NCBI GenBank assembly: GCA_043816185.1 | Contig: JBDRIG010000112.1 | Location: 1-42,800, forward strand | Direction of reading: 5' to 3' | DNA from: Elusimicrobiota bacterium | Lineage (GTDB): Bacteria; Elusimicrobiota; UBA8919 | DNA length: 42,800 nt | Shown: one piece after another, positions 1,828-26,472 of the stretch | Layout of the letters: each line of letters opens with the position of its first letter | Numbering within the stretch: position 1 is the stretch's first letter | Translations under genes and position numbers: made by a program | Notes under the pieces: model-generated | What the model was told of the DNA's origin: nothing | Database searches by the model: none | The model's input: the letters and a program-made list of their open reading frames with translations, nothing else

Positions 1828-2802
1828 TTATTTAAACATAATCAATCGCCACATATTTAATGCTGTGATTGCTGCCTTAAAAAAATTCCCGCCGACACCC
1901 TTACTTATACCGACCCTTCTTTTTAGTGTTACCGGTATTTCAATAATCATAAGGTTGTTTTTGAGTGCTACAAGAAGCATTTCACAAGAGAAATGGTTTC
2001 CTTCAACCTTTAATTGGTCTATTATTTTTTCTAACGCTTCCTTTCTAATCAATCTAAAGGTACATCCTAAATCCGTTAGACGAACATTCCAAAATCGTGT
2101 TTGAAGTAACTTTGCCATGAAAACATTTCCCCATTGAATAAAAAAATTTAGTTGAGAATCCGGAGTATTTAGTTCTTTTGTCGTTCTTGTGCCAATCACC
2201 ATATCGGCATTTTCAATGTATGCGATGAGTTTTTTTAAATCACTACCAGAAAAAGTACAATCGCCTTCAACTAAACATACAATATTTCCAAATTTCATCG
2301 CCTCTTTCAATGCACGAATGCAACAGGCACCATAACCCTGAATACTTTCCCCAACTACTTCTGCACCTGCTTTTAATCCCTCTTCCGTGGTTCTATCAAC
2401 TGAATTATTATCAACTACAATTACTTTTGCTACATTTTTTTGAGATAAAAAATCCTTAACCGCGAAACCTATAGAAAGGTCGTCGTTATATGCAGTTAAC
2501 CCAACGGAAATTTGTGGATTAGATACTGGTGCGAACATCAATGACTTCTTTTTTTCGGAAAAAATAGCAGATACTAAAAAATCAAGTATACTAATCACTG
2601 TGCCAAAAATAAAAAAACTATTAGTTATATTCAGTATCCACACCGATTGAAAAACATATATTGAAAAAACACCAAGAATAGAACCAATAACATACATCAG
2701 AAAAAAAATAAAACAAACAACAAAAAAATGAACTCCGTAGAGTAAAAATTTATGATCCTTCATAATTTTACCATTTGACTTGAATAAAAGATTTAATATC
2801 AT
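1828..2802 (-). CDS. Membrane-anchored glycosyltransferase family 2 (GT-A fold)
   Basis: 324-aa ORF with N-terminal TM helices followed by a GT2 core: VGLTAYNDD, VVDNNSVDRT, GYGACCIRAL, LVEGDCTF. The ATG at 2763 (MKDHKF), 4 nt past the upstream stop, is an alternative start. Confidence 0.85.
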   Translation of the reverse strand: MILNLLFKSNGKIMKDHKFLLYGVHFFVVCFIFFLMYVIGSILGVFSIYVFQSVWILNITNSFFIFGTVISILDFLVSAIFSEKKKSLMFAPVSNPQISVGLTAYNDDLSIGFAVKDFLSQKNVAKVIVVDNNSVDRTTEEGLKAGAEVVGESIQGYGACCIRALKEAMKFGNIVCLVEGDCTFSGSDLKKLIAYIENADMVIGTRTTKELNTPDSQLNFFIQWGNVFMAKLLQTRFWNVRLTDLGCTFRLIRKEALEKIIDQLKVEGNHFSCEMLLVALKNNLMIIEIPVTLKRRVGISKGVGGNFFKAAITALNMWRLIMFK

Positions 2803-4177
2803 TTATTAATTGTCCGCTAATCAAACTGCGAAAAAAACGTTTTAATATAAAACGTGGCCTGAAATAAAACTCGCGATAAAATTTTTTATAGTAGATATCG
2901 ACGATATCCCAGTCAAGAGTTGGATGATCATATAAACCCCTTGCCGGGAAATAAAAATTATATTTCGACCATTCCTTTTCCTTAATTTTACCCATCATGC
3001 TTAATTGTTCAAAATAGGGTGTTGATGGCAAGGGAATAGTTATGGAAACCTTTGCTATGTCTAACTCTAGTTCTTTAGCAAAATTTATTGTTTCTTGCAT
3101 TGTTTTTTCAGTTTCACCAGGGAGTGCCAGCATAAAAGATCCATACACCTCTAAACCAGCTTTTTTTGACATCTTTACTGCCTTCCGAATATCTTCACAG
3201 GTTTCTCCTTTACAAATAACTTTAAGAATATCATCATTTCCTGTTTCTATGCCATACAAAACCCTATAGCACCCAGCTCGCTTCATCAGAATCAAGAGTT
3301 CCTGGTCAACACGGTCAGCTCGAATTCCGGTAATGGTCGCCCACGAAAATCTAAGATTTCTCCAAATTATTTCTTCACATATACCTTTGGCTCTCTCAAT
3401 ATTCACGGTAAAACAGTCATCAGAAATGTGAATTTCCTTAAATCCACAATCAAGCATATATTGCATCTCATCTACTACCCTTTTTATTGATTTTGTTCTA
3501 AAATTTTTACCAAAAACATTTTTGTTGCAATAAACACACCCATATGGACAACCGCGACTGGTCTCAATCCACCCCGTTGGATTTGCTTTTGTAAGAAGTT
3601 TAGTCGTTTTATAGTTCTGAAGATTAAATAATCGCCATGCCGGATATGGCAAGTCATCTAAGTTTTTTATAAATTCTCTTCGTTGTGAAACATAGCAATT
3701 ACCATTCTGTTTGAAAGCAATCCCGACAATATCTTCCAACGGTTTCCCTTCCACAATATCAATAATAGAATAATCTCCTTCACCCAGACAAATTATATCT
3801 ATTTCTGACGATTCTAAAACATCGTGAGGCATACTTGTCGGATGCACGCCCCCGGCAATAACAACAATATTTTTATTTGCTTCTTTCACAATCTTTACTA
3901 AACGAAATGATTCTTCAGTCAAAGGTGTAGTAAAACTTATTCCGACATATTGTGGATTAAAAGAATGTAAATCCGCTAAGAATGTTTTTTCATCTATTTT
4001 ATTTAAATCGTCAATTTTAACTGAATGTCCTTTGGAAACTAATGAGCCCGCAATCGTTGCTAAACCCAGCGGCGGCGAATAAATGGCTCCTGGCTTAATC
4101 GTTGACCCTTCATAAATGAAACTGTAAGATGGGTATACCAATAAAATTCTTTTCTCTTGATTATTATCCGAAGACAT
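2768..4177 (-). CDS. B12-binding-domain radical SAM protein (class B), paralog 1
   Basis: The N-terminal Rossmann-like region carries IAGGVHPT and the radical SAM cluster motif is SRGCPYGCVYC. The maximal ORF starts at 4240. The ATG at 4177 is preceded by AGGAGA 7 nt upstream. The ATG at 4195 overlaps the upstream TGA as ATGA. Confidence 0.9.
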   Translation of the reverse strand: MSSDNNQEKRILLVYPSYSFIYEGSTIKPGAIYSPPLGLATIAGSLVSKGHSVKIDDLNKIDEKTFLADLHSFNPQYVGISFTTPLTEESFRLVKIVKEANKNIVVIAGGVHPTSMPHDVLESSEIDIICLGEGDYSIIDIVEGKPLEDIVGIAFKQNGNCYVSQRREFIKNLDDLPYPAWRLFNLQNYKTTKLLTKANPTGWIETSRGCPYGCVYCNKNVFGKNFRTKSIKRVVDEMQYMLDCGFKEIHISDDCFTVNIERAKGICEEIIWRNLRFSWATITGIRADRVDQELLILMKRAGCYRVLYGIETGNDDILKVICKGETCEDIRKAVKMSKKAGLEVYGSFMLALPGETEKTMQETINFAKELELDIAKVSITIPLPSTPYFEQLSMMGKIKEKEWSKYNFYFPARGLYDHPTLDWDIVDIYYKKFYREFYFRPRFILKRFFRSLISGQLINDIKSFIQVKW

Positions 4178-4191
4178 TAACAATTCTCCTA

Positions 4192-4818
4192 TCATTCTTT
4201 CTGAGCAATTATAAGCATTTGCTTTGCCATTGGTTTCCATGGCAAAAAAAGATATATTTTAGTGAGAAAATACGATTTTGGAATAGATGATTTGAAACTG
4301 AAAGGGATAAAGTGTTTTTTTACTAATTTAATAACATATTTTCTACTAATTAGAAGATCACTTAAACTTATGTGGCTGAAAGCTTTTTTATGAGTGTAGT
4401 CATCCCAATATTCACGATAGCAATAATAGTAATTCGGTTGCAACAAAATAAGCTTTCCACCTTTTTTCAATACTCGGTCCAACTGTATAAATAGTAGGTC
4501 TATTTCTTCATCGTTTAAGTGTTCTAATAAATTGCTGGCAAAAACTACATCAACTGTATTATTGGGTATATCAATGTTTGTGACTTCTGAATTGAGAAAT
4601 AGCACTTCATTAGAACAGAAATTCTTCACCTTCGGATTGCTGTCCAATGCATATTTTTTGTTAGCAACAATTTGATTTATAAAATCACAATAACCAGCAC
4701 CTAATTCTACAATGGTTGAAGTATTTGGAATTTCGCGCTGCAGATATTCACAAATAGCTTTCCAGATAGATTTTCTGGATTTGTCATATTGATAACGGCT
4801 CTCAAAGTATTTGTTCAT
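4192..4818 (-). CDS. Class I SAM-dependent methyltransferase
   Basis: 208-aa ORF with motif I VELGAGYCDF, an acidic loop (ALDSN) and motif post-III LKKGGKLILLQP. Confidence 0.85.
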   Translation of the reverse strand: MNKYFESRYQYDKSRKSIWKAICEYLQREIPNTSTIVELGAGYCDFINQIVANKKYALDSNPKVKNFCSNEVLFLNSEVTNIDIPNNTVDVVFASNLLEHLNDEEIDLLFIQLDRVLKKGGKLILLQPNYYYCYREYWDDYTHKKAFSHISLSDLLISRKYVIKLVKKHFIPFSFKSSIPKSYFLTKIYLFLPWKPMAKQMLIIAQKE

Positions 4819-4832
4819 TATTACAATTTTTA

Positions 4833-6590
4833 TTAATTATTTACGTTTATTTTTTTATAAATAACTACATCAATATCTACAAAAGGAATTAAGTAATTTT
4901 TATAAACTTTATCCAAAAACCACGGGACTCTCGTGAACCTTTTTTCAACTTCAAAAACATTTTGAAATTGTGAGGTAGTAGTTTCCTCTTCCTGTCCGAT
5001 GGTAATATAAAAGTCGGGCATTTTCTCCAAAGGAGGACCATCAACCGTATTATATCTCAACTGATAGAACGGCGGATATCCTCCACAATCTGAGAATAGT
5101 TGATTTTTACCACCTATTGTTGAACCCGGTCTGATATTTTCATTAATCCATTTTCCTGCTTTTAACTTATTATCACCGTAAATGAAAATTATACTATAAT
5201 ATAGAGAGTTGAAAAATGTCCAAACAACAACAAAAACAATTGGAATTGTTTTTAACCAGTACCGTCTACCCGATAAGAACAATTCTCTTAATAAACGAGC
5301 AGCAAGAAGAACCAACAATGGTATAATCGGCGTAGATAGGTGTAAATTACATAGCCAAAAGTCTGGATTTGCGCTGATTGCGTAGAAACCGAGAGGAATA
5401 ATACAAGAAAGACACATTATGTCGACTTTGCTACGTTTATAAAAAGCAAATGCTATTCCTAAAACAACAAACATCCATAATGGCCATCCCAATCCATTCG
5501 GTAAAATATCAAATAAATAAACTTTCAAATTATGAAAAGATGGTGAAAATATTGAAAGCCCAGAAGAAATAAATTTGATATCCAATATTGGCTGTTTTGG
5601 ACACAATATCCAGTAAGGATTTGCAATGAAAAAACCGACGAGAATAGCGATAACAAACAGAAATATATTTTTGTTGAAACAAAATTTTATCTTTTCTTTT
5701 ATGTGAACGTCTTTATACGAGAAAACCTTTAATATATGTGCTGTTAAACCATATAGAATTATAATACCGGCGTAATAAAATCCTCCGGTAGCAAAACCAG
5801 CAAATAGACCTGTTAAAAAATACCATTTTTTTTCATTCGTAGTGAGCAATTTATTCGCAAACAATATACTCGTCACTACAAACGGAAGAACAAATACATG
5901 GGGTTTAAGAAAATGGCTGTACACAATAATAATTGGAATAAAGGCATAAATTATTGCACCAAGCAATGCTGTTTCATCGTCATAACAAATTTTACACGCC
6001 AGAAAAAAAATAGGAATTGAGAAAATAAAAAATATGATTGTGCACGCTTTAGGAATTATAAATAACTTTGCTACTTCATTCGGATGATGAAAGTAATATT
6101 TTATATCACTACTTATTTTGTTCAAACCCAACATTGAGCCGATTTTCAATGTTGTGCCGATAAAATAGAGATAATGGCCGCCATAAATGAAAAATCGCGG
6201 GTTAAAATCTAAATTTCTCCAGTTTATTTGGGAAACTGCTTTTAATACTACTTGTTCATCACTGAACTGTGAATGCAATAAATATGTACGCAATGCATCC
6301 AATTTTTTGGTCGAAACGGTAACTTCTTTACCATCAAGATTTAAAACAACCTCATTGCCTTTAGGAATAACATTATGCAAAATATGAATAGGCCCTTGGG
6401 TTAGATAATGTTTATATATTTCATCTCGTCGTGCTTCTAAGAACGGGCTGAGGATTTCAAGTTCTTTCTGGTCTGAAAAGACCAACTCAGTTTGTTGCTT
6501 TTTCGGCAATCCAAACTTGATACCTAAAAGACATAGTAAAAATGATAAGAGCATAGCAACTACAATTATCAGATTTTGTCGAGTAGACAT
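4833..6590 (-). CDS. Polytopic membrane protein, probable GT-C-fold glycosyltransferase (ArnT/PMT_2-like)
   Basis: 585-aa ORF with more than 10 predicted hydrophobic helices and a soluble C-terminal domain. A strong SD precedes the start (gtAGGAGGtttgtaATG at 6590). The family assignment is weaker than for the ORF at 6851-8116. Confidence 0.65.
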   Translation of the reverse strand: MSTRQNLIIVVAMLLSFLLCLLGIKFGLPKKQQTELVFSDQKELEILSPFLEARRDEIYKHYLTQGPIHILHNVIPKGNEVVLNLDGKEVTVSTKKLDALRTYLLHSQFSDEQVVLKAVSQINWRNLDFNPRFFIYGGHYLYFIGTTLKIGSMLGLNKISSDIKYYFHHPNEVAKLFIIPKACTIIFFIFSIPIFFLACKICYDDETALLGAIIYAFIPIIIVYSHFLKPHVFVLPFVVTSILFANKLLTTNEKKWYFLTGLFAGFATGGFYYAGIIILYGLTAHILKVFSYKDVHIKEKIKFCFNKNIFLFVIAILVGFFIANPYWILCPKQPILDIKFISSGLSIFSPSFHNLKVYLFDILPNGLGWPLWMFVVLGIAFAFYKRSKVDIMCLSCIIPLGFYAISANPDFWLCNLHLSTPIIPLLVLLAARLLRELFLSGRRYWLKTIPIVFVVVWTFFNSLYYSIIFIYGDNKLKAGKWINENIRPGSTIGGKNQLFSDCGGYPPFYQLRYNTVDGPPLEKMPDFYITIGQEEETTTSQFQNVFEVEKRFTRVPWFLDKVYKNYLIPFVDIDVVIYKKINVNN

Positions 6591-6850
6591 TACAAACCTC
6601 CTACAACTATTTACATCTTAATCTATTACTGAACTTTTAACACATTACCCAATTGTCAGACAGGCAAAAATAGAAAAAATTACAAAAATTTTGAAGCCGA
6701 GCCATATATTGTTAATAACTCTTTACTTCTAATTTAGGGTTATATTCTTAAATAAGTTGACGGGTTAGTATTGTATCACAAATTTCTTATATTTTTTACA
6801 ATTAAGCGAATTGGTTCAGAATATAAAAATATAAAAATAGAATTTCTTTT

Positions 6851-8116
6851 TCAATTTTTCAAATTTTTCAATTTTTCAAAAATTTTATAAATACATACCG
6901 ATGTAAAAATAAATAAATATGGCATGGTGGGCAATTGATATCTGGGGCCAGTCTCAAAAGTAATATGTCCGGTAAAATAGATTAAAATTAAAATTAAAAT
7001 TACAGAGTTCTGCCAGTTTTTTCTGGACAAAACTATTCCACCAAATGCAAGAATTAAAAAAATACCGTGCAATAATAAAAGTCCTGAACGAATAAAAATA
7101 TAAAAATAATTTTTTTCTGACAAATATTCAGATATAGATTTATCCACACCAAATATAGAGGAATGACTTGTCCACCAAAATCTTGGTAATCTTTTGATTA
7201 AAAGTAAAATATAATTCTTAAAATTTGCTCGTATTAGTTTTATGCCTTCTTGTTTACATTTTTTCTCCCGTTCTATATCAGGAGATCTTTTCGATATAAA
7301 TATTTCTTGTTCTGGATAATTTTCTGATAACTTAAGAATTTTTTCAAAACTTTCATTATATGTTAAGCCGCTTGCCATGTTCCCGGCTATAAACAAACCC
7401 CCGCCTATCCCAATGCTACATGGTTCAATGGTTTCAAATAAACGATAGTTACGAATAGACCATGGAAGCACAATAAGTATAAATGCAATCAAAAATATGA
7501 ACCACTGAATGAACCGCTGAAGATAATTTTTTCTTCCGATAATTATTATTGAAAGTAAAACAACAAATGGAAACAATATTGTCACTGGTCGTGTTAAAGT
7601 AGCAAATCCGAGAAAAATACCACAACCAATAAAATACACAATTTTTGTTTTTTGAAACCACTTGATAAACAAAAAAATAGAAACAATAAATAAGAATGTA
7701 AAGAGTGTTTCTGACAATAATAACCCGGTATATACAATTAAAACAGGATAAAATGCTATTAGCCATGCAGAAAGATTCGCAATTCTTTCGTCAAAAATTT
7801 CTTTTGCAAGATAATATAAGATAACACAGGTTAAAGCGTCTAAAATTGCTTGAAAAACCCTAACCATTATGTAACTATGTCCGAAAATAAAATAAATAAG
7901 ACTCAAGAAAAAAGGATAGACGGGTGGCCTTATCGGCGTTGGTATATGAGGTTTTATTGAAAAACCATTACCAGTTATCAAATTATATGCAATGGCATCG
8001 TATCCAATCTGATCGTTGGTAAGAATTTTTTCCTGTGGGAAAATAAAGATATATCCGATTCTCAAAATAAAAGATACGAATAAAATCAGCAAAAGCGTCT
8101 TTGTATTATTTTTCAT
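6851..8116 (-). CDS. GT-C glycosyltransferase, family 39/83 (ArnT/PMT_2-like)
   Basis: Multi-TM ORF with the typical first-loop region ILTNDQIGYDAIAYNLITGNGFS and PPVYPFFLSLIYFIFG. The ATG at 8116 (MKNNTK) overlaps the upstream TGA as ATGA. The maximal ORF extends to 8167. Confidence 0.8.
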   Translation of the reverse strand: MKNNTKTLLLILFVSFILRIGYIFIFPQEKILTNDQIGYDAIAYNLITGNGFSIKPHIPTPIRPPVYPFFLSLIYFIFGHSYIMVRVFQAILDALTCVILYYLAKEIFDERIANLSAWLIAFYPVLIVYTGLLLSETLFTFLFIVSIFLFIKWFQKTKIVYFIGCGIFLGFATLTRPVTILFPFVVLLSIIIIGRKNYLQRFIQWFIFLIAFILIVLPWSIRNYRLFETIEPCSIGIGGGLFIAGNMASGLTYNESFEKILKLSENYPEQEIFISKRSPDIEREKKCKQEGIKLIRANFKNYILLLIKRLPRFWWTSHSSIFGVDKSISEYLSEKNYFYIFIRSGLLLLHGIFLILAFGGIVLSRKNWQNSVILILILIYFTGHITFETGPRYQLPTMPYLFIFTSVCIYKIFEKLKNLKN

Positions 8117-8644
8117 ATTCCATTTTTTGTAAAAACGAATTCGTTGCAACCATAACCGCCACTGCATGTTTTTAATTTTTCAAGAACAAACCCTCTATTT
8201 CTAAAAAACTTAAAAATTTCTTCCGGTTTGGCGACTTCAAACGGCCAGCCACCAACCCAATTAACAACATCACTCCACGGTGACATCCCTCTGTTTTTTT
8301 TGTAATTCTTCCAAGTAGAAAACGGTCTGAAATAAAAAAAATCGCGAATCATTGTCGGCAACCAGATTCTAACAAAAACAGGCAATAAAATCAACGATTT
8401 AAGTTCGCGCGTGCATTCAACACTTTGCACGTCATAATCAAACGAGTGAACATTTTTTTGATTCCAATTTCATTGCGGCAAGTGAAAAAAGACCGCTTCC
8501 CGAACCAATATCAAGAAAACTTTCCCCCTCAAGATTGCCAATATCCAACATTTCACAAAGAGATTTGACCGCCTGAATTATGCAATTCTCGTTAAGATAT
8601 TTAAGGAAACTTTTCCAATTTTTTCCGAATTCAAAATGTTTCAT
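8113..8644 (-). pseudogene. Frameshifted, and apparently internally deleted, class I SAM-dependent methyltransferase
   Basis: ORFs 8438-8644 (MKHFEFGKNW...FLDIGSGSGLFSLAA...KKCSLV*) and 8113-8430 (...SFDYDVQSVECTRELK...RGMSPWSDVVNWVGGWPFE...GCNEFVF) are two halves of one methyltransferase. The mRNA reads TCA-A7-TGTTCAC (T run 8453-8459 on the plus strand). With A6 the frame reads SKNVHSFDYDVQSVEC without interruption. Confidence 0.7.
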
Positions 8645-8649
8645 TTTGA

Positions 8650-9006
8650 TTATTTTCGTATTGCCAACTTTCTCAATATCTCATACATTTTTGAAGGAAT
8701 GTATTTTCTTAAAATAAAATTTGTTACATAACTTCTGAAAGAAATATAGCAAGTTTTTATTTTGTTAAACAGCGAAATCTCTATCATAAATTTAAAAAAT
8801 CTTTTTTTATAGCGAAATCGCTGAAATTTTGTAACAAAATAACTTATATAACCCGACGGATAAATATAATCCGTTGTACGAACAAACTGCTTGTACTGTT
8901 TATATGAACTGAAGTCCTGATGAAAAGAGAATGTTGACATCTGAACAATTGCATAACATTTTTTTACATGTTCTTTTGTAAGCCATTTAATGTTTTTTTT
9001 TGTCAA
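8650..9006 (-). pseudogene. Detached C-terminal tail of the radical SAM gene immediately upstream, separated by a +1 frameshift in an A9 run
   Basis: The ORF begins at a TTG inside the A9 tract (T run 8993-9001 on the plus strand). With A8 the upstream protein would read ...FNMPIDKKNIKWLTKEH.... The tail carries TKFQRFRYKKRFFKFMIEISLF, which matches ISELRMRTQFWYFPIDMVLI in paralog 4. Confidence 0.65.
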
Positions 9007-10231
9007 TTGGCATATTAAACTTTCCCCAGTCGTCGAGGGTTGATGGTGGAATGTATCCGTATTCTTTTACCAACAGATTGAATATTGATGTACCAGGCAA
9101 CGGTGCCAGATTAGACATCGTAATAGCAATATAAGGGTTATTTTTTGAAATATTTTCAATTACACTAGAAGTTGCTTCAATATCTTTTTCTGTCTCTGTA
9201 GGGAAACAGTTCATAAAATTCAACCTGTGTGGAATTTTATACTCTCTCATTTTATCTATTGTGCGAAATATCTGATCTATCGTAATATCTTTGGTTATTA
9301 TTTCATCTAACAATCTCTGTGATCCTGATTCCGCTCCAAAAAGAAGGCAGATACATCCAGATTTTTTCAGTAGTTCTAAAAATTCATTGCCATATTTTTT
9401 GACTGCCATGTCAAATGTATTGAAACGGCAGTAGGCCTTCCATCGGATTTGTAGGTTTTTTTTAATTATGATATTCAATATCTCATAGCCCCTTGTAGCA
9501 TCAATGAAAAATTCATCTTCATATATAAAATCATAGTTCAGAATATTATACTTTTTGTAATAGTATTCTATTTCCGCAACCACATTTTCAGCAGATTTCT
9601 GACGATATTTCCTTTTATGAAAGGCAACACTGTAGCAAAAACCGCAACGGTAAGGACATCCTCGAGATGTATGTATCGAAATCGTAGATGTTTTGGAAAT
9701 AAAGTATTCGCCGAATAAATGATAAGGCAAATCAGTGTCAATGTTATCTATATTAATCAGTTGTCTAGGAGGATTTGTTATTACTCTGCCTTCACTATTT
9801 TTATAAGCAATACCTTTTACCGAAGATAAATTCCTTTTTTCCAAAAGAGCAATCGCGAGTTCTTTAGAGGTTTCTTCCCCTTCACCTATTACGACAATAT
9901 CAACCAATTTGTTCTGAAGTGTCTGTTCCGTAAGCAGCGATGGATGTACACCACCCAGAATTATAGGAATTGTTTTTTTATATTCTTTAATTCTTTTTGC
10001 AATTTTTAAGCCATCTGTAATCATATTTCCTGTAAGCATACTTATACCGACGAAAAGATAATCCTCGCATCTGATTTTATTTATTGACTCAATTCCAAGA
10101 TGCAATAATGATACATCCAATCCGGTTTGAATCAACGCTCTGGCAACATAAAGCAGTCCCATCGGGAAACTAAATCCTCTTCCCTTGTTTCCTGAATACA
10201 CTAAAAGTACTTTTGGTTTTGATAAAGACAT
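8987..10231 (-). CDS. B12-binding-domain radical SAM protein, paralog 2 (N-terminal 414 aa; the C-terminal tail is frameshifted away)
   Basis: Carries ILGGVHPSLLT and SRGCPYRCGFC. It ends ...DDWGKFNMPIDKKKH* inside a poly(A) run. The paralogs are 490-508 aa, and this ORF plus the 118-aa tail would reach about that size. Confidence 0.85.
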   Translation of the reverse strand: MSLSKPKVLLVYSGNKGRGFSFPMGLLYVARALIQTGLDVSLLHLGIESINKIRCEDYLFVGISMLTGNMITDGLKIAKRIKEYKKTIPIILGGVHPSLLTEQTLQNKLVDIVVIGEGEETSKELAIALLEKRNLSSVKGIAYKNSEGRVITNPPRQLINIDNIDTDLPYHLFGEYFISKTSTISIHTSRGCPYRCGFCYSVAFHKRKYRQKSAENVVAEIEYYYKKYNILNYDFIYEDEFFIDATRGYEILNIIIKKNLQIRWKAYCRFNTFDMAVKKYGNEFLELLKKSGCICLLFGAESGSQRLLDEIITKDITIDQIFRTIDKMREYKIPHRLNFMNCFPTETEKDIEATSSVIENISKNNPYIAITMSNLAPLPGTSIFNLLVKEYGYIPPSTLDDWGKFNMPIDKKKH

Positions 10232-10265
10232 AGGATTAATTTGTTGTACAGGAATTTGAAAACAT

Positions 10266-10324
10266 GCACCTCAAAGGGTGCGGCTACCAGCATGATTTAT
10301 TGGTAGCCGCAGGTTTTAACCTGC
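10266..10324 (-). other. Cluster of three abutting GC-rich stem-loops straight after a stop codon (possible terminator, attenuator or RNA processing site)
   Basis: The arms are gcacc/ggtgc (10266-10270 with 10277-10281), gcggctacca/tggtagccgc (10280-10289 with 10301-10310, a perfect 10 bp) and gcaggt/acctgc (10309-10314 with 10319-10324). Neighbouring stems share 2 nt. Confidence 0.5.
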
Positions 10325-10325
10325 G

Positions 10326-11792
10326 TTAACTTACTTGCCGTTTTCCGGCGATAAAATCTTTCAAATCTCTTATTACTGGACTGTAATTTATTAGTTTATG
10401 CAAAAACTCAATTTGATAAATTTTTGATAAAATTATTGCAAAAACTCTTGGTACGCCTATAACCAAAAATTTTTTTTGATAGTATTTTTGTTGAAGTTGC
10501 CAAGATATTTTGTTGCCTATTAGGAAAAGTCTTTTTCGCTCTTTAACTGATAACTCCGGAGTTTCAAAAATAGGAATGTTTAATCGTGAGTTTGCGTCGT
10601 TTAAATAGTTAGAAGGATGAAAAACAAAATAATTATTTTTTATTACCCAGTCGTAAAGTTCGGTTTTGGGATATGGTGTTATATGGTAAAATTTTACATC
10701 TTCAACTGGATATTTTTTTGCGAGTTCAAATGAGCGTTCAATATCTTCAACTGTTTCGTTTGGCGAACCGATGAGAAAGAAAAGCATCACGGAAAATCCG
10801 AGTTCAGTGGTGTCCTTTATGGCGGTGTCAATGTCTTTTAGTGTCTCGCCTTTCTTTATGATTTGCAGAATTTTATCGGTTCCTGCCTCAACGCCGAAAG
10901 CAATAGTTTTAAAACCGACTTCTTTCATCTTTTCCAACAATTCTCTATTAACCTTATCAGCACGGATGCCGTTTCCACATCCAAGTACAAGTTCAGTCAT
11001 TACGGATTCTTTTAATAAATCGCAGATTTTATTTACCCGATCTGCTAAAAGAGTAAAATTATCATCCGCAAACCAGAAAGTTCTGTAGCCCTTGTCATAC
11101 CAGTATTTAATCTCTCTGATTATGTTTTCCGGACTTCTATATCTGAATTTTTTCCCGATAGCGGACTGCACCGGACAATAAATACAACTGAATGGACAAC
11201 CTCTTGAAGATACTATAGATATGTCTTTTATCGGGGTTGGTGCATTTTTATACGGGTATTTAAGTAGTTCAAATTTATCGTAAGTCGGGAAGGGGATTGA
11301 ATCTAAATCTGAAATAAACGCCCGTTCACCGTTAAAGATTATTTCTCCGTCGGTTCTAAAAATTAGACCTTTTATTTTGTCAAGTTCAATCCCGCTGCAT
11401 ATCTCTACAATCGTCTGTTCTCCTTCTAATACAATTCCGTAGTCAATGCCGTTACAAGATTTTAGTGTTTCCTCTCTGAAAAGCGAAACATGTGGTCCGC
11501 CAACAACTATTTTTATATCTTTAAACTTTTTTTTTAGTCCGTTGATTTTTTCATAACTTTCAAGATAACGGTATGTCATTAGTGAAATTCCGATTAAATC
11601 CGGTCTGAAATTTTCAATCTTTTTGTAAAGGTCGTTTTCTTTATATCCAAGACTCATATCCAAAATATCATATTCAATGTTGTTATATTTTAGAAATTCC
11701 GCAATATAACCCAAACCCGCAAGTATTTTCGGAACTTTGAATATACTTTTATCATATGAAAAGTTCAAAAGCAGTACCTTATTGTAACGCAT
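10326..11792 (-). CDS. B12-binding-domain radical SAM protein, paralog 3
   Basis: Carries VVGGPHVSLF and SRGCPFSCIYC. The track start at 11807 is a TTG. The ATG at 11792 (MRYNKVLLL) overlaps the upstream gene by 14 nt. Confidence 0.9.
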   Translation of the reverse strand: MRYNKVLLLNFSYDKSIFKVPKILAGLGYIAEFLKYNNIEYDILDMSLGYKENDLYKKIENFRPDLIGISLMTYRYLESYEKINGLKKKFKDIKIVVGGPHVSLFREETLKSCNGIDYGIVLEGEQTIVEICSGIELDKIKGLIFRTDGEIIFNGERAFISDLDSIPFPTYDKFELLKYPYKNAPTPIKDISIVSSRGCPFSCIYCPVQSAIGKKFRYRSPENIIREIKYWYDKGYRTFWFADDNFTLLADRVNKICDLLKESVMTELVLGCGNGIRADKVNRELLEKMKEVGFKTIAFGVEAGTDKILQIIKKGETLKDIDTAIKDTTELGFSVMLFFLIGSPNETVEDIERSFELAKKYPVEDVKFYHITPYPKTELYDWVIKNNYFVFHPSNYLNDANSRLNIPIFETPELSVKERKRLFLIGNKISWQLQQKYYQKKFLVIGVPRVFAIILSKIYQIEFLHKLINYSPVIRDLKDFIAGKRQVS

Positions 11793-12909
11793 TGTTTTGT
11801 TGACCAAGTAAATTTATTCCAGGTATTAATCTAGTAAATAATCCATTCCAATGTTTTGCTATTTCTTCAACTTTGTATTTTTTAGCCGATTCACAAGCAT
11901 TTTTGGCAAGGAGATTCCGTTTGTTTTCATCCGACATTAGTTCGTCCATTTTTTTTGACAGCGATTCTATATTACCTGTTGGAACAAGCACGCCGTCCAC
12001 TTCGTTGCTTATAATCTCCGTGGGACCGCTTGGACAGTCAAAACTGACGACGGGAATCCCACACGCCATTGCTTCTATTATGACTATACCAAAACCTTCA
12101 AAACGGGAGGAAAGAACAAATATATCTGACGCAGCAAACTTTTCCGCCGGCTCTTTTACTAATCCCGGTAGTTTAATTCTTTCCTGAAGTTTCAGAGTTG
12201 CAACAATCTTTTCCAAATCGTTTCTTAGTGGTCCCTCGCCATAAATCTCTAAATCCCAATCGGAATGCTTTTCCTTGATCATATCAAATGCCCGAATCAA
12301 AACATCAAATCCTTTTTGATAAGTGAGACGTCCCATTCCTATTATTGTTTTTCTTTCTCCTCTATTTATTATTTTGTCGGTTTTTATAATATTTATCGGA
12401 TTTGGAATCACTATCGCATTACGCCTCATATATCTCGGAAACGATTCTAAAACTCCATTACTCACAGCAACCATTGAAGAAGCAAAAGGGTAAAGTATTA
12501 TTCTCAGTATTTCCCAAAATTTACCTGGAGAATAATATCTGGTATTGACATGTTCCGTGACAATGACTGGCACACCAAGAAATGCTGAAGATAAAATTGT
12601 CAGTACATTTGTCTGGTCAATAAACGAAATAATTACATCGGGTTTTATGGATTTTATTGCATTCCTGATAGTAATAATTTTCGCAATATTTTCTCTAAAT
12701 CTACCGATAATACCGTAATTTTTTCTAATTGCACCCAAATGGTGATGCTTTACGGCAGGATTGAGTTCATAAAACGACTTATTGTTTTCATTGTCAAAAG
12801 TGAATATGTCAACCTGCATGGTTTTTTCAACCCAATAATTTGACAACAAAGATACAATCCTTTCTGCCCCTCCTGCATTCATTGTTGATATTACAATTGC
12901 AATTTTCAT
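11779..12909 (-). CDS. Glycosyltransferase family 4 (GT-B)
   Basis: Carries MKIAIVISTMNAGGAERIV at the N-terminus and the EX7E region SSRFEGFGIVIIEAMACGIPVVSFDCPSGPTEII. Confidence 0.9.
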   Translation of the reverse strand: MKIAIVISTMNAGGAERIVSLLSNYWVEKTMQVDIFTFDNENNKSFYELNPAVKHHHLGAIRKNYGIIGRFRENIAKIITIRNAIKSIKPDVIISFIDQTNVLTILSSAFLGVPVIVTEHVNTRYYSPGKFWEILRIILYPFASSMVAVSNGVLESFPRYMRRNAIVIPNPINIIKTDKIINRGERKTIIGMGRLTYQKGFDVLIRAFDMIKEKHSDWDLEIYGEGPLRNDLEKIVATLKLQERIKLPGLVKEPAEKFAASDIFVLSSRFEGFGIVIIEAMACGIPVVSFDCPSGPTEIISNEVDGVLVPTGNIESLSKKMDELMSDENKRNLLAKNACESAKKYKVEEIAKHWNGLFTRLIPGINLLGQQNNALQ

Positions 12910-12912
12910 AAT

Positions 12913-14439
12913 TTATTTGAATTCTAAGCGTTTTACTTTTTTGAATAACATTATTAAAACCATGTCAATTGGAAAATACCAAAACTGTGTTCTCATTCTC
13001 AATTCAGATATTTTTTGCATTAGTATGAGTAACATCTTCTTTAAATATCTTACCTTTAATGAAAAAATATTTAAATTCACAAAATCCATGTAAAATGAAA
13101 TTTTTCCAACAAAATTTTTATCATTTATCCATATTAGCCTATCAATATTATCAAAACCTGTAAGAATATCCATTGAGTTTGTCCATTCTTCAACAGTTTT
13201 AGGTTGGTTGTAATGATAAATATTTATACATTCGTCATATAGTTCACCTCCGGGATATGGACGAAATATTTGAGGACCAACGATGGACACAATATCCGAA
13301 ATAGATCTTAAACGCCGAATCATTTTTAATGTGCATACTATGTCCAATTTGGTTTCACCGGGGATTCCCATCATAAGTGAAAACGTTGTCCCTATTCCGC
13401 AATTCGTGATAAGTTCCGCAGATTTATATATCTGTTCAACAGTTATGTCCTTTTTCAATTTATTTAAAATTTGTTGTGAGCCGGATTCAGCACCGATTGC
13501 TAAGCGATAACAACCAATGTCCTTTAATTGTATCAGCATATCGCTGTCAACTATTTTTTTATCAAATGCATCCGCCCTGATGCTTGCCATCCATTTAAAA
13601 ACAAGTTTTCTATGTTTAATCTCAGATATAAAATTTTCTATATTTGACCGTTTAATAAAGAAGTCCTCATCAACAAAATCAAAAAAATTTACTGAATAAT
13701 TAGTGATTAGGTGTTCTATCTCATCGCATATTCTTTGCACGGATTTGGTTCTGTATTTTCCAAAAAAGAGGTTTTTATTTGAATTTATGCAAAATGTGCA
13801 TCGATAGGGACATCCGAAACTAGTAAGCATGACCCCGAAATTTACTTCTATTGTTTCCTTACCGCGATAAACAAATCTTCTTTTATATCTGGGGTAGTTG
13901 AAAATATCATAATTAAAATATGGAAGTTCATTCAAATCATGACAAGGTCTCGGTTCAGTTTGGACAAATTTATTATTTTCAAGAAAACACAATCCTTTTA
14001 CTTTAGAAACATCAGATTTATTTTTCAAGGTATGCAACAATTCGTGAGTTGTATGTTCGCCTTCACCGATGCAAACATAATCAACAAACCCCGATTTTAA
14101 AACATCTTCAGGAAAAAGAGAGGAGTGTATCCCACCCCAAATGATAGAGATAAATGGATATCTGGATTTTATATGCTTTGATAGTTGAGACGCATGTGAT
14201 ATCTGCGAAGTCATTACCGAAAAACCAACAAGAATTATTTGATTTGGATTGCTTTTTATGGTATCATCAAACGCTTTGACAGGGTCATCTTCCAAAACCA
14301 TATCAAGTATAGTTGTTTCCCAGCCCTTTGAACAAAGAAAACTTCCAATAGATAATAATCCAGCATATGGATAGGGACTGGATTGCTGTTCTTTTGAATA
14401 ATAAACAGATCTTGGGTTAATTAGTATACAGTCATACAT
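12913..14439 (-). CDS. B12-binding-domain radical SAM protein, paralog 4
   Basis: Carries IWGGIHSSLFP and SFGCPYRCTFC. At 508 aa it retains an intact C-terminal tail. Confidence 0.9.
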   Translation of the reverse strand: MYDCILINPRSVYYSKEQQSSPYPYAGLLSIGSFLCSKGWETTILDMVLEDDPVKAFDDTIKSNPNQIILVGFSVMTSQISHASQLSKHIKSRYPFISIIWGGIHSSLFPEDVLKSGFVDYVCIGEGEHTTHELLHTLKNKSDVSKVKGLCFLENNKFVQTEPRPCHDLNELPYFNYDIFNYPRYKRRFVYRGKETIEVNFGVMLTSFGCPYRCTFCINSNKNLFFGKYRTKSVQRICDEIEHLITNYSVNFFDFVDEDFFIKRSNIENFISEIKHRKLVFKWMASIRADAFDKKIVDSDMLIQLKDIGCYRLAIGAESGSQQILNKLKKDITVEQIYKSAELITNCGIGTTFSLMMGIPGETKLDIVCTLKMIRRLRSISDIVSIVGPQIFRPYPGGELYDECINIYHYNQPKTVEEWTNSMDILTGFDNIDRLIWINDKNFVGKISFYMDFVNLNIFSLKVRYLKKMLLILMQKISELRMRTQFWYFPIDMVLIMLFKKVKRLEFK

Positions 14440-14443
14440 AAAC

Positions 14444-15679
14444 TTATTTTTTTTTGAAAATACGTTTTATAATTTTTTTTAATCGTGGGGATCTGTCTAT
14501 TGTTTCTCTTTTTAGATAATACCATATCTGATAAAAATCAAAAAGACGAATTCTAAACATTATTTTTAATTCTTCAAACGCATATAAGATTTTACCAGAT
14601 AACAAAAATTTCAACATTAAAGGGAATCTGTACGTGGCATAATTCCTTAAGAAAATTTCGTCAAGAATTATTTCTGTGTGGGTGTATTTCTTTTCTTCAT
14701 TCATCTTCCTCAATTTTTGTATAAGAGCTGGTAACGCAGTTGAGACATCATAATCTCGCAATGCTCGTTTATATCCATTTTCAGCAATATGTTTTCTCTC
14801 GTCTTCATTTTTTAGATAATATCTGATTTCTTGAAGCAATTCTTCTTTTGTATTGAAGACCACAATTTCTTTATCCTGTTCAAAAATTTCTTTGCTTTCA
14901 GTTGCAACAGCATATTCTGTTAAAACAAACCCACCACATAAAGCAATTGCTTCAATATTAGCTTTGAATTGTTTTAATCTCTTTGATATAATCCAATCTC
15001 TTTTAAGCATGCTTGGTGGAGCAACACCAGTGAATGTCAGATTAATTTTGCTTCTGTTATAAATCTCAGTTATTTTTTCCACACTTATTCTACTATTGAG
15101 CGTTCCTAGCCCATATTGTTGGACATTTATTCCATTTTTCACAAGATAATCCAAAGAATCTTTTCTTCCATATTTTACCAATGAACCAACAAACGAAACA
15201 TCAATATCTTGAGAAATATTATTCAGTTTATGATACACTGCTGTATCAAAAGCACAAAAAGTGATTGCATTTATTCTCCAGTGTTTGAATGTAAATCTAC
15301 CAACTACATCTGGAACTATAATAAGGTCGGCCACCTGAGCGTAATATATGTCTTTGATATCAAACCAATGATCCCAGTCAAAAAGCATCATGGCCAAAAA
15401 CACTTTTTGGCGAAGCAGCTCAAAAAATTCTACTCTGAATTCAAAACCCCATGAATCTGCCCACACAAAGATAAGAATTTTTATTTTATTTTTATCGATG
15501 AAATCCAAAATGTATTGCTCAATACCACTATTGCCAAGTTCTGAATACAATTTTGGATAATCTAAAAAGTACTGACCATTTTTTATAAACTCTCTTGTAT
15601 AAGCGTTGACAAGATCCGTGCCCATTGGTGCTGAAACATCCGTATTCGCAGATAAAAACAAAGTGTCTTTTGCATTCAT
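14444..15679 (-). CDS. CgeB-family / DUF3880-type glycosyltransferase-like protein
   Basis: 411-aa ORF. Its C-terminal half, GGFVLTEYAVATESKEIFEQDKEIVVFNTKEELLQEIRYYLKNEDERKHIAENGYKRAL, is the typical Glyco_trans_1_2/CgeB signature. Confidence 0.7.
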   Translation of the reverse strand: MNAKDTLFLSANTDVSAPMGTDLVNAYTREFIKNGQYFLDYPKLYSELGNSGIEQYILDFIDKNKIKILIFVWADSWGFEFRVEFFELLRQKVFLAMMLFDWDHWFDIKDIYYAQVADLIIVPDVVGRFTFKHWRINAITFCAFDTAVYHKLNNISQDIDVSFVGSLVKYGRKDSLDYLVKNGINVQQYGLGTLNSRISVEKITEIYNRSKINLTFTGVAPPSMLKRDWIISKRLKQFKANIEAIALCGGFVLTEYAVATESKEIFEQDKEIVVFNTKEELLQEIRYYLKNEDERKHIAENGYKRALRDYDVSTALPALIQKLRKMNEEKKYTHTEIILDEIFLRNYATYRFPLMLKFLLSGKILYAFEELKIMFRIRLFDFYQIWYYLKRETIDRSPRLKKIIKRIFKKK

Positions 15680-15700: not shown

Positions 15701-17290
15701 CTACTGAACCGTCTGGAGAATCTTGTCTCTTACGAGATTGTATATTTTGTAAACCTCTTCAAGTTTGAATAGTAAGGACAAGCTAATATAGACAGCCAAA
15801 CCTGTCAAAACGGATAGCGATGTCGCCAATATCTTGTAAATAATAATTCCCTCATTCCATGAATTCAAAAATCTCATTGTTATGACTGCGGTGAACCCTG
15901 AAATCGTGGCAAAAACTGCTATCTTCAAAACATCTTTCAGAATTTCCAAACCGTGAATATTACCGATGGACTTTTTTAGAGCGACGAAAAACATAACAGC
16001 GATAATCAAAATATTGCAAGATGAAGATAAAGCAATGCCCGCAGCCGGAGGATTAAGTAATCTGATGAACAAGATATTTCCGACGACAGTTAGTACAATT
16101 GATATTGCAATAATCTTCAAAATCCGACTATATTCGTTCAGTATAAACAATAATTTCGAAAAAATAATAGCGGCATAATAGGAAAATAGTTGAAACGCAT
16201 AGAAAAAAAGTATTTTTGAAGTAACTTCGGTGGCTTCAGCAGTAAAATTTCCCCTCTGAAATAATATGGAAACTATTTGTTTGGAAAAAAACGCAATCAT
16301 TACGGCTATTGGTATGAAAACAAAAGCTGCCATGCGGATACTTAATGCAAGAGTATTCCTCAATTCCTCTATTTTGTTATTAGAAACTTGAATGGAAAAG
16401 TAAGTATACAAAACTACTGGAAGCGACGATATAAATACCGTCAGGGGCATTTGCACGATTTTTTCTGCATATGTCAGTGCCGTAATGCTACCAGCCGGCA
16501 GAAATGCCGCCATATTCCTGTTAATCAAGATTACTATACTCGGAGCCACTGAAATAATCATAAATGTCAGAATATTCTTGCCCAGTTTATTCCCTTTGAA
16601 ATATTTGGTTTCAAAACTGAAAGTATATCTGAATCCCATCTTTTTCAGAATGTACATCAAAACAAATGTCTGCAATATTATGCCTGCAGTATATCCCCAT
16701 ACTATTGCATAGATATTATGTCCTTTTTGGAACAGAACAACGGAGGCAATAATACCGATTGTTATCATAATCTGCGAAACCGCGGGATAAAAAAATATTT
16801 TATACGCATTCAGCACCGAAGTCAAAATGCCTGAAAACCCCATAAAAACAAGCATTAAACTGAGAATTTTTAAAATTCTTGCTGCTGGCCAAATTATGTT
16901 TTCAGAAAGACCGGAGAACAGAATTCTTATTATCTGTTCCGAAAAAACGAAAGTGATAAGTGAGATGCCAAGAAAAATAACTACGAAGTAATTCATCGCA
17001 GTGCTCGCAATTTTATTTGAGTTGTTAATCCCATCATCAAGTGACTTAATTAACATCGGAATAAAGACAATACTGAATGTAGATAATATTATTCCACCAG
17101 CCATTGTTGGCACAGTGAGTGCTGAATAATAGGAGTCCATAGAAACTCCAATGCCGAAACACTTAGCAACAATGACTTCCTTTAATAAACTTATCAGGTT
17201 AGTAAATATGCTTACAATAACCAAAGATATTGATGCTACTGCAATAGTTTTATTAACAGACAATGTTTTTCCCATCCGATTTCCTTTCAA
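15701..17290 (-). CDS. murJ: MurJ/MviN-family (MOP superfamily) lipid-linked glycan flippase
   Basis: 529-aa ORF with about 14 hydrophobic helices and the N-terminal signature LLKEVIVAKCFGIGVSMDSYYSA. Whether its substrate is lipid II or the locus glycan cannot be told from sequence. Confidence 0.8.
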   Translation of the reverse strand: MKGNRMGKTLSVNKTIAVASISLVIVSIFTNLISLLKEVIVAKCFGIGVSMDSYYSALTVPTMAGGIILSTFSIVFIPMLIKSLDDGINNSNKIASTAMNYFVVIFLGISLITFVFSEQIIRILFSGLSENIIWPAARILKILSLMLVFMGFSGILTSVLNAYKIFFYPAVSQIMITIGIIASVVLFQKGHNIYAIVWGYTAGIILQTFVLMYILKKMGFRYTFSFETKYFKGNKLGKNILTFMIISVAPSIVILINRNMAAFLPAGSITALTYAEKIVQMPLTVFISSLPVVLYTYFSIQVSNNKIEELRNTLALSIRMAAFVFIPIAVMIAFFSKQIVSILFQRGNFTAEATEVTSKILFFYAFQLFSYYAAIIFSKLLFILNEYSRILKIIAISIVLTVVGNILFIRLLNPPAAGIALSSSCNILIIAVMFFVALKKSIGNIHGLEILKDVLKIAVFATISGFTAVITMRFLNSWNEGIIIYKILATSLSVLTGLAVYISLSLLFKLEEVYKIYNLVRDKILQTVQ

Positions 17291-20348: not shown

Positions 20349-20373
20349 AACTTTAATTTTCTCACTTTGATCT

Positions 20374-20423: not shown

Positions 20424-20426
20424 ACA

Positions 20427-21365: not shown

Positions 21366-21378
21366 AATGTTTCTCTCG

Positions 21379-26442: not shown

Positions 26443-26472
26443 AACCAGAAGTTTTTATCGTTGCTATCCTTC

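Follow-up and report, generated by a model that had tools for sequence, protein, structure and literature searches.

Genetic organization and the four radical SAM proteins

The stretch of DNA analysed here (the window) comprises 42,800 nucleotides of contig JBDRIG010000112.1 from an Elusimicrobiota bacterium, and this work concerns four genes in it, rSAM-A to rSAM-D, which code for radical S-adenosylmethionine (SAM) proteins with B12-binding domains and lie interleaved with genes of glycan assembly. All substantial open reading frames (ORFs) from position 1 to about 32 kb are on the minus strand, the GC content is about 33% throughout, and the window proteins that were queried all find their best matches in Elusimicrobiota. 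In the 5′ to 3′ direction of the minus strand the genes start with two Wzy_C proteins, a YfhO-like GT-C glycosyltransferase, a GT2 glycosyltransferase, an unknown protein of 194 aa and a GT4 glycosyltransferase, and continue with an HddA-like GHMP kinase, DegT, an epimerase/reductase, a 4,6-dehydratase, a split transketolase and a MurJ-type flippase. They end with a CgeB-like protein, rSAM-D, a second GT4, rSAM-C, rSAM-B, the methyltransferase MT2, the GT-C enzymes GTC2 and GTC1, the methyltransferase MT1, rSAM-A, a second GT2 and an AsnB-like amidotransferase (Table 1). The central inference of the original prediction for this DNA, that an uncharacterised radical tailoring is linked to glycan assembly, is supported by the sequence comparisons presented here. 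The locus should, on the same comparisons, be recast as a mosaic of at least three conserved radical SAM-glycosyltransferase modules, one of which appears to be decaying in this genome.

The four ORFs had been proposed to share one architecture, and a Pfam hidden Markov model (HMM) search bears this out. In rSAM-A, rSAM-B, rSAM-C and rSAM-D alike the N-terminal B12-binding domain PF02310 (65, 66, 70 and 56.5 bits, respectively) is followed by the radical SAM core PF04055 (87, 76, 95 and 64 bits), all above the gathering score that served as the Pfam cut-off (32.1 for PF02310). The motifs quoted for each protein are all present in the translations, both the GGxH-type strings (IAGGVHPT, ILGGVHPS, VVGGPHVS and IWGGIHSS) and the CxxxCxxC strings (CPYGCVYC, CPYRCGFC, CPFSCIYC and CPYRCTFC). 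GGxH and the three cysteines are invariant in all four window proteins, and GGxH is invariant in 23 rSAM-A orthologs as well. A basic C-terminal tail in each protein was also recovered: the last 70 residues hold 13-17 lysines and arginines versus 2-8 aspartates and glutamates and are amphipathic, with no clear transmembrane helix in any of the four. Pairwise identity among the proteins is 27-31% (E 1e-32 to 1e-55), and judged by their sequences the genes are real, ancient paralogs. A recent tandem duplication is excluded by this low identity together with the separate orthologs that the genes have at 50-90% identity.

A model of rSAM-A built with AlphaFold (AF2) on the 23 orthologs (predicted local distance difference test 91, predicted template modelling score 0.90) shows a radical SAM barrel preceded by an N-terminal Rossmann (alpha/beta) domain and followed by three C-terminal helices. 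With Foldseek its nearest solved structure is AprD4 (template modelling scores 0.77/0.81), followed by MgmA, TsrM, CysS, OxsB and TokK. The predicted structure confirms a class B fold for rSAM-A.

Relation to characterised enzyme families

The position of the four proteins relative to characterised enzymes was judged by curated NCBIfam HMM scores, which were used as a proxy for phylogeny. All four fall below the cut-offs for HpnJ (TIGR03471, cut-off 577.6; rSAM-A 227, rSAM-C 184, rSAM-B 131 and rSAM-D 128 bits), BchE (TIGR02026, cut-off 481; rSAM-A 204, rSAM-D 169, rSAM-C 133 and rSAM-B 119 bits), the diol dehydratase AprD4 (NF033070, cut-off 500; 54-87 bits, the highest being rSAM-A) and MgmA, the glutamine C-methyltransferase of methyl-coenzyme M reductase (MCR; TIGR04014, cut-off 360; 96-147 bits). 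The top curated match is HpnJ for both rSAM-A and rSAM-C, BchE for rSAM-D and, for rSAM-B, ApyD (143 bits; cut-off 750), an enzyme of RiPPs (ribosomally synthesised, post-translationally modified peptides). The scores amount to at most about 40% of the equivalog cut-offs. A sequence search of the PDB returned the same best match for all four proteins (9ccb, E 1e-13 to 1e-24), which is identified as MgmA (PMC11796369). With every curated cut-off missed, no tight grouping with a characterised enzyme of unrelated function was found, and membership in a characterised family is excluded by these scores and the weak PDB matches.

The genomic context was compared in the same way. Among the Pfam and NCBIfam annotations of the window ORFs there are no hopanoid genes (shc, hpnH, hpnI, hpnK) and no tetraether genes, and a tetrapyrrole or bacteriochlorophyll gene context is absent from the window. 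Groundwater Elusimicrobia have radical SAM genes associated with nitrogenase paralogs (bioRxiv 10.1101/765248); a connection with these was considered and rejected, as the context differs and no nif-like genes are found here.

Conserved linkage to glycosyltransferases in other genomes

Orthologs of rSAM-A at 47-82% identity occur across many phyla. In three Elusimicrobia loci (L001, L004 and L005; rSAM-A identity 67-72%) the gene belongs to a compact stand-alone cassette consisting of a PMT_2 GT-C enzyme, a methyltransferase, rSAM-A and GT2, with the variant in L004 that the GT-C gene comes after GT2 and not ahead of the methyltransferase. In all three, GT2 has 67-72% identity and comes next after rSAM-A on its downstream side, while a methyltransferase is directly upstream of rSAM-A in these loci and in L020. 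In L026, from groundwater Elusimicrobia, GTC1 (41%) is directly upstream of rSAM-A (42%), which is followed by an MT1-like gene and then GT2 (43%). A scan with the rSAM-A family profile, over one genome per species and with the flanks searched by iterated local HMMs, gave 15 loci with a B12 radical SAM protein of at least 40% identity to rSAM-A; GT2 lies within 4 kb in 14 of these, and GT2 together with a GT-C enzyme in 7. At 30-39% identity GT2 was found within 4 kb at 11 of 27 loci (with GT-C at 4), and below 30% identity at 9 of 41 (with GT-C likewise at 4). Pfam-verified GT2 and PMT_2 genes stand beside A-like radical SAM genes in loci of Methanosarcinales, Nanoarchaeota, Actinomycetes, Bifidobacteriaceae and Elusimicrobia. 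The AsnB-like amidotransferase, encoded in the window immediately downstream of the rSAM-A genes and their partners, recurs near A-type or A-like cassettes in five loci, the window protein being 50-55% identical to those of L001 and L040 and 32-37% identical to those of L004, L012 and L044.

The genes around rSAM-D and rSAM-C are best compared with those of a close relative (L007/L091), where orthologs of rSAM-D (90% identity), GT4 (85%), MurJ (80%), rSAM-C (78%) and GTC2 (78%) are kept in the order MurJ, the CgeB-like Glyco_trans_1_2 gene, rSAM-D, GT4, rSAM-C, a slot discussed below, an intact MT2 and GTC2. The ratio of non-synonymous to synonymous substitution rates (dN/dS) versus L007 is 0.13 for rSAM-C, 0.17 for rSAM-D and 0.19 for GTC2, with 0.11-0.19 for the flanking transferases, and by this measure rSAM-C and rSAM-D are under purifying selection. 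The dS of adjacent orthologs in the region 6851-17290 varies from 0.27 (rSAM-D) to 1.35 (the CgeB-like glycosyltransferase), which in sequence terms indicates a recombining, mosaic locus. Upstream of the flippase the relative has another four radical SAM genes, of which three have B12 domains and one has HemN_C, together with an SDR gene (L007 247-6300). In L007 the rSAM-A cassette was not found within 10 kb, and there is no rSAM-B. An rSAM-D ortholog (52-54%) also occurs in L095, in the order flippase, rSAM-D, GT4 and B12 radical SAM gene, with three more B12 radical SAM genes and a methyltransferase gene upstream. CgeB-like proteins adjoin B- or D-type radical SAM proteins in L007, L010, L096 and L097.

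The orthologs of rSAM-B keep a different company. In L009 and L010 they (58-63% identity over the core) adjoin a block of kinase, DegT, epimerase and dehydratase genes with 73-84% identity to their window counterparts, and the block is followed by split thiamine diphosphate-dependent (transketolase-type) genes, seen by Pfam only. In L009 the 4,6-dehydratase ortholog beside rSAM-B (5342-7444) is 700 aa long and has an intein-like insertion, a weak Intein_splicing match splitting its Epimerase domain. The rSAM-B orthologs of L096 (Nitrospirae) and L097 are found among CgeB-like transferases, a flippase, GT4, PMT_2 and Wzy_C genes, and in L096 this gene set follows a NusG-family gene. The close relative keeps only the first 73 nt of rSAM-B (86% identity; L091 9476-9559). 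Since this remnant is followed by a 448-aa NanM-type gene that passes the cut-off of TIGR04371, "putative sugar O-methyltransferase", the same slot holds a radical SAM gene or an ordinary sugar methyltransferase in two close genomes.

Linkage of the radical SAM genes to glycosyltransferases is conserved in relatives, as had been anticipated: it is seen in L001, L004, L005, L007, L009, L010 and L095-L097, and in fusions of rSAM-C homologs. An exhaustive HMMER search with rSAM-C returned 7,789 representatives with E values of 1e-30 or lower; clusters with 40-51% full-length identity number at least 60. An earlier notion that rSAM-C is a rare family was abandoned on these numbers; it stemmed from a metagenome pattern scan which, limited by its short pattern, gave only 3 loci. 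The multi-domain relatives are 38-51% identical to rSAM-C over the matched domain. They comprise fusions of the radical SAM protein with GT4 (P0367, P0368), with GT2 (P0390), with a methyltransferase (P0369, P0420, P0455), with two methyltransferases and GT2 (P0432) and with a DegT aminotransferase (P0445), as well as a DUF3880/Glyco_trans_1_2, radical SAM, methyltransferase and GT2 protein (P0434) and a GT56, radical SAM and GT4 protein (P0484). P0434 begins with a domain homologous to the CgeB-like protein of the window (29% identity over 294 aa, E 7e-29). In P0391, P0414 and P0467, each 2.1-2.3 thousand residues long, a radical SAM domain is repeated in tandem four or five times; three or four of the copies have a B12 domain, and in two of the three proteins one copy bears a SPASM domain. 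These predicted fusions mirror the gene adjacencies of the window and are the strongest argument that the radical SAM proteins act on sugars together with transferases and that a single pathway may employ several radical SAM modules.

The original prediction saw in the four enzymes an extensive radical tailoring within one locus. The linkage to glycan enzymes stands, but a single pathway is not supported: the rSAM-A cassette occurs alone in L001, L004 and L005 and L007 has rSAM-D and rSAM-C without rSAM-B and without the rSAM-A cassette within 10 kb, so that the modules are separate and not one four-step pathway. On this comparative evidence the four genes belong to at least three separately conserved modules, found apart in other genomes and not shown as one pathway, and rSAM-B appears inactivated here.

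Lesions in rSAM-B and MT2

The rSAM-B core ORF and the tail ORF downstream of it had been assigned to one gene with the shared architecture. They are indeed one gene, but one that is broken by a +1 frameshift in a run of nine A (8993-9001, minus strand). Removal of one A yields a 526-aa rSAM-B that aligns over 98-100% with intact orthologs of 522-545 aa, the best at 78% identity. Of the two SAM methyltransferases claimed for the locus, MT1 is confirmed by Pfam whereas MT2 is a pseudogene. About 91 residues of the SAM-binding core that its intact 270-aa ortholog (L007:15784-16596) possesses are missing, and there is also a frameshift at a run of seven A; the repaired product is 176 aa long versus 270 aa.

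A survey of the homopolymers in the window gave 43 runs, all of A or T and at least 8 nt long apart from one C run of 6. The rSAM-B run is the only one of the 43 that breaks an ORF, although all but two of the other 42 lie inside annotated genes, and eight further 9-nt runs, all within ORFs, break none. Because only this run interrupts an ORF, homopolymer error is not pervasive here. Pervasive homopolymer sequencing error is for the same reason an unlikely cause of the rSAM-B frameshift, and MT2 carries the deletion of about 91 codons in addition. We conclude from these lesions that the rSAM-B and MT2 pair is, as far as the sequence tells, inactivated in this genome.

Other genes of the locus

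The neighbours that had been claimed for the radical SAM genes, namely ArnT-like and GT-C enzymes, a GT4, a CgeB-like transferase and a flippase, were all recovered by Pfam and NCBIfam (Table 1). The tight interleaving and coupling of the genes likewise holds. When the starts are placed by comparison with orthologs, neighbouring genes are in most cases 0-21 nt apart or overlap slightly, as do GT4 and rSAM-C by 14 nt and MT2 and GTC2 by ATGA, and longer gaps are confined to 6590-6851, 10231-10326, 17290-17596 and positions farther upstream. Promoter and terminator scans gave counts no higher than in shuffled sequence and are uninformative on sub-operon boundaries. Scans of the window for tRNA and Rfam families gave no match.

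Table 1. Predicted genes and other features along the window, from left to right.
Feature	Position	Strand	Evidence and remarks
AsnB-like glutamine amidotransferase	1..1815	minus	extends past left window edge; frame open from MCGIVG at ~1815; absent from ORF listing for that reason
GT2, N-terminal membrane segment	1828..2763 (ORF 1828-2802)	minus	Pfam GT2 51 bits; putative polyprenyl-phosphate sugar synthase type; likely true start 2763
rSAM-A	2768..4195 (ORF 2768-4240)	minus	475 aa from conserved start; likely true start 4195
MT1, class I SAM methyltransferase	4192..4818	minus	Pfam Methyltransf_11/25; stop abuts rSAM-A start
GTC1, polytopic GT-C-type (PMT_2), 585 aa	4833..6590	minus	Pfam PMT_2 36 bits
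GTC2, ArnT/PMT-like GT-C	6851..8167 (likely start 8116)	minus	Pfam PMT_2 75 bits, PMT 45 bits
MT2 pseudogene, class I methyltransferase remnant	8113..8644	minus	comparison with intact L007 ortholog
rSAM-B, frameshifted	8650..10231	minus	core ORF 8987-10231, tail ORF 8650-9006
rSAM-C	10326..11792 (ORF 10326-11807)	minus	Pfam PF02310 and PF04055; likely true start 11792
GT4 between rSAM-D and rSAM-C	11779..12909	minus	Pfam Glycos_transf_1 151 bits; PglH/PglJ-like, sub-threshold
rSAM-D	12913..14439	minus	Pfam PF02310 and PF04055
CgeB-like Glyco_trans_1_2 protein	14444..15679	minus	Pfam 69 bits
MurJ/MOP-family flippase	15701..17290	minus	Pfam MurJ 220 bits; TIGR01695 228 bits versus cut-off 235.6
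Sugar-nucleotide block: split transketolase, 4,6-dehydratase, epimerase/reductase, DegT (RfbH-like), HddA-like GHMP kinase	17596..23552	minus	
Remaining assembly genes: GT4, 194-aa unknown, Dol-P-hexose/ArnC-like GT2 and YfhO-like GT-C, two Wzy_C	23689..31858	minus	
Second putative three-component pair within the preceding row	25484..28356	minus	Dol-P-hexose/PpgS/ArnC-like GT2 adjoining YfhO-like GT-C
Two Wzy_C proteins within the same row	28369..31858	minus	one with TPR repeats
ORF of 402 aa	34320..35528	minus	match to DNA polymerase III alpha (~1150 aa) limited to the PHP region, its N-terminal ~300 residues
CehA/McbA-like PHP metallohydrolase	35670..37070		next to the DnaE-like ORF
ORF of 1743 aa	37089..42320	minus	sole match a weak, sub-threshold carbohydrate-binding module 11

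The AsnB-like gene passes the NCBIfam model asn_synth_AEB (523 bits; cut-off 267) and reaches 587 bits with the XrtA-type exopolysaccharide amidotransferase model, below its cut-off of 817. The best NCBIfam matches of the GT2 beside rSAM-A are all below their cut-offs (AglJ 75, dolichyl-phosphate (Dol-P)-hexose transferase 49 and PpgS 35 bits), and GTC2 matches ArnT and LA_3751 weakly. MT1 has as its top NCBIfam match the corrinoid-protein-associated methyltransferase CpaM, a very weak one (23 bits, E 3e-5); the resemblance is probably generic class I methyltransferase similarity only. The 402-aa DnaE-like ORF could represent a fragment of a gene or a PHP protein standing on its own.

Proposed roles of the radical SAM modules

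The window holds parts of a Wzx/Wzy-type system: a MOP-family flippase (MurJ/Polysacc_synt_3) that is syntenic in L007 and L010, two Wzy_C proteins, and GT4, GT2 and GT-C genes. [quoted passage not shown] Taken together, the gene content makes it fairly probable that this is a mosaic, single-strand Wzx/Wzy-type surface glycan locus, O-antigen- or capsule-like, in which four B12-domain radical SAM enzymes are sugar tailors arranged in three modules, with the order of steps and the substrates deduced from gene content and neighbourhood.

In the first module (GT-C, MT1, rSAM-A and GT2, with or without AsnB), which resembles a three-component extracytoplasmic glycosylation system, GT2 would load a sugar onto polyprenyl phosphate, rSAM-A would modify the lipid-linked sugar at the cytoplasmic face together with MT1 and perhaps the amidotransferase, and GT-C would then transfer the modified sugar outside the cytoplasm. 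Since it depends on SAM and on a reductant, the radical step is placed on the cytoplasmic side, on a nucleoside diphosphate sugar or a polyprenyl phosphate sugar before flipping. A membrane-bound substrate would agree with the basic, amphipathic tail. In the second module (flippase, CgeB-like transferase, rSAM-D, GT4 and rSAM-C) the radical enzymes and the adjacent transferases would work on a donor sugar or on the repeat unit linked to undecaprenyl diphosphate, as is suggested for rSAM-D and rSAM-C by their tight coupling to GT4 and the CgeB-like protein. The third module would be rSAM-B, which elsewhere travels with the sugar-nucleotide block and here seems to be off by frameshift together with the neighbouring methyltransferase. 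The linkage to that block suggests that rSAM-B modifies the sugar made by it, and one may speculate from the HddA-like kinase, GMD-like dehydratase and RfbH-like DegT that this sugar could be a deoxy-heptose or something similar.

We infer from the PF02310 domain that the four enzymes use cobalamin. In the proposed reaction the 5′-deoxyadenosyl radical would abstract hydrogen from an unactivated sugar carbon, most likely followed by methyl transfer from methylcobalamin (C-methylation); dehydration or deoxygenation, epimerisation and ring rearrangement would be less likely outcomes. C-methylation is ranked first, as a tentative choice by analogy, because it is the reaction catalysed by the majority of class B enzymes characterised so far, among them GenK, GenD1, Fms7 and MoeK5, which act on sugars, and because a sequence similarity network (PMC9204698) groups HpnJ with MoeK5 and Fom3. 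Ring contraction appears unlikely for rSAM-A because its product must stay a glycosyl donor for GT-C. A bolder proposal, possible but rather unlikely in our view, is that the rSAM-A step is an unrecognised rewriting, by a B12 radical SAM enzyme, of a polyprenyl-phosphate-linked monosaccharide between GT2 and GT-C. In Elusimicrobiota, Omnitrophota, Nitrospirota and DPANN archaea, radical SAM sets would then tailor surface glycans in several steps and give sugars unseen in characterised polysaccharides, some of these sets being fused as four- to five-domain polyproteins or to glycosyltransferases.

Several points weigh against this account of sugar-tailoring modules. The presence of PF02310 is not proof of cobalamin use; AprD4, the best structural match, has a B12-type domain yet uses no cobalamin. 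The fusions are metagenomic gene calls, some of which could be artefacts. The HMMs for neighbouring genes were seeded from window proteins, which may favour close taxa and exaggerate the gradient between identity and linkage. The MT1 and GT-C partners of rSAM-A vary between genomes, and only the pair of rSAM-A and GT2 is tightly conserved. An initiating phosphoglycosyltransferase of the WbaP/WecA type (Bac_transf or Glycos_transf_4, MraY-like) was not found among the 30 main non-nested minus-strand ORFs scanned, and its gene may lie outside the 42.8 kb. Nor is there a small GtrA/ArnE-type flippase (GtrA, ArnE/F, MATE) in or beside the rSAM-A cassette, the MurJ-type protein being the sole flippase-like gene in the window.

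Alternative explanations

The radical SAM enzymes might instead modify the lipid part of the glycoconjugate, that is a polyprenyl carrier, a glycolipid anchor or lipid A, for instance by methylation, cyclisation or cross-linking of hydrocarbon chains or by converting a lipid-linked hexose to a carbocyclic head group. HpnJ, the best curated match of rSAM-A and rSAM-C, and Cds are proposed to contract the ring of lipid-linked hexoses following a glycosyltransferase, and many class B enzymes have lipid substrates (PMC13459092). The basic amphipathic tails suggest membrane association and GTC2 resembles ArnT, a lipid A modifier. The HpnJ scores are, however, far under the cut-off and hopanoid or tetraether genes are missing from the window, while the fusion partners are glycosyltransferases, a DegT sugar aminotransferase and methyltransferases, not lipid enzymes. 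A ring-contracted cyclitol phosphate would, moreover, presumably no longer serve as glycosyl donor for the adjacent GT-C, and we consider a lipid target decidedly unlikely. Most improbable of the readings is action on a protein or peptide, as in RiPP-like C-methylases or on a glycoprotein substrate of the PMT_2 transferases, with the glycan genes as mere neighbours in a protein-glycosylation locus. The match of rSAM-B to ApyD, that of all four proteins to the protein glutamine C-methylase MgmA and the protein O-mannosyltransferases among PMT_2 proteins could be read in this way, but the scores lie far below both family cut-offs, no RiPP-type precursor-peptide, protease or transporter genes are seen in the window annotations, and conserved neighbours and fusion partners are sugar enzymes.

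Two further explanations concern the lesions. Instead of decay, the frameshift in rSAM-B may reflect an error of sequencing, or else the tract of nine A may be an on/off switch for phase variation. In surface-glycan genes, homopolymer tracts are a classical type of contingency locus, the lesion is a single base in such a tract, and the repaired protein is full-length and conserved. The unambiguous deletion in adjacent MT2 makes the pair look inactivated as a unit, and the other 9-nt runs inside ORFs are all tolerated without a break, so that we hold error or phase variation to be unlikely here while taking it more seriously than a lipid target. Conversely, the cluster as a whole might be decaying, with its radical SAM genes largely non-functional relics in this genome. 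This would accommodate both lesions, the shrinkage of rSAM-B to a 73-nt remnant in the close relative and the possible DnaE fragment elsewhere in the window, which hints at further gene remnants. Yet rSAM-A, rSAM-C, rSAM-D and all flanking transferases are intact, the dN/dS of rSAM-C and rSAM-D is low and no other long homopolymer run interrupts an ORF, and general decay is very unlikely.

Significance and comparison with known systems

Class B radical SAM enzymes are known to tailor antibiotics, cofactors, proteins and membrane lipids, and two recent reviews of class B and of lipid-modifying radical SAM enzymes assign none to a cell-surface polysaccharide pathway. A partial literature search, which leaves an earlier description possible, found no paper linking radical SAM enzymes with cell-surface polysaccharide, GT-C enzymes or three-component glycosylation. 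Four distinct families whose stable linkage to glycosyltransferases, GT-C enzymes and flippases extends over many phyla of uncultured bacteria and over DPANN-type archaea make a testable case for an unknown radical sugar chemistry on microbial surfaces, most likely yielding C-methyl or otherwise rearranged sugars. The modules are compact targets for reconstitution, the best being the four-gene cassette of GT-C, methyltransferase, rSAM-A and GT2. If the proposal of sugar tailoring is true, it would add a new enzyme class for glycan biosynthesis and glyco-engineering and help to explain the abundance of B12-domain radical SAM genes in the genomes of these lineages.

Among known enzymes, MgmA shares the class B fold and is the best solved-structure match by sequence for all four proteins, but it acts on a protein, the scores for its family are low, and the window host is not a methanogen and offers no MCR context. 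AprD4, which among solved structures comes nearest to the rSAM-A model, acts on a sugar as the 1,2-diol dehydratase of apramycin biosynthesis, yet its sequence identity to rSAM-A is only 19-20% and the NF033070 score of rSAM-A is far from the cut-off. The partner reductase of AprD4, AprD3, is not seen in the window. HpnJ and Cds resemble the proposed system in that a B12-domain radical SAM enzyme acts after a glycosyltransferase on a lipid-linked hexose (PMC13459092); they differ by the low scores of the window proteins and by the hopanoid or tetraether genes that the window lacks.

The rSAM-A cassette has a parallel in the three-component systems (GtrA/B/V, ArnC/ArnT, PpgS/Rv3779, CsbB/YfhO and Citrobacter ORF15/14/12), which combine a polyprenyl-phosphate GT2 with a GT-C enzyme, as the cassette may do. 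Tailoring of the lipid-linked monosaccharide before GT-C is known from such systems, by DprE1/E2 and by the ORF13 epimerase on undecaprenyl phosphate-ribofuranose (PMC11127046). The proposed tailoring enzyme of the window would differ in being a B12-domain radical SAM protein with a methyltransferase, a combination not described in that paper or in other retrieved literature, and the rSAM-A cassette comes without a dedicated small flippase.

In the chemistry proposed for them the window enzymes resemble MoeK5, GenK, GenD1 and Fms7, which have the same B12-domain and radical SAM architecture as the window enzymes and act on unactivated sugar carbons in moenomycin and aminoglycosides. The window proteins reached the cut-off of no curated model for these enzymes. 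Compared here by description, the four known enzymes come from actinomycete secondary-metabolite clusters, whereas the window genes belong to primary cell-envelope glycan loci of uncultured phyla and archaea. MoeK5 in particular works in the biosynthesis of a lipid-linked glycan, and the moenomycin pathway also employs AsnB-like amidotransferases, as the rSAM-A cassette may.

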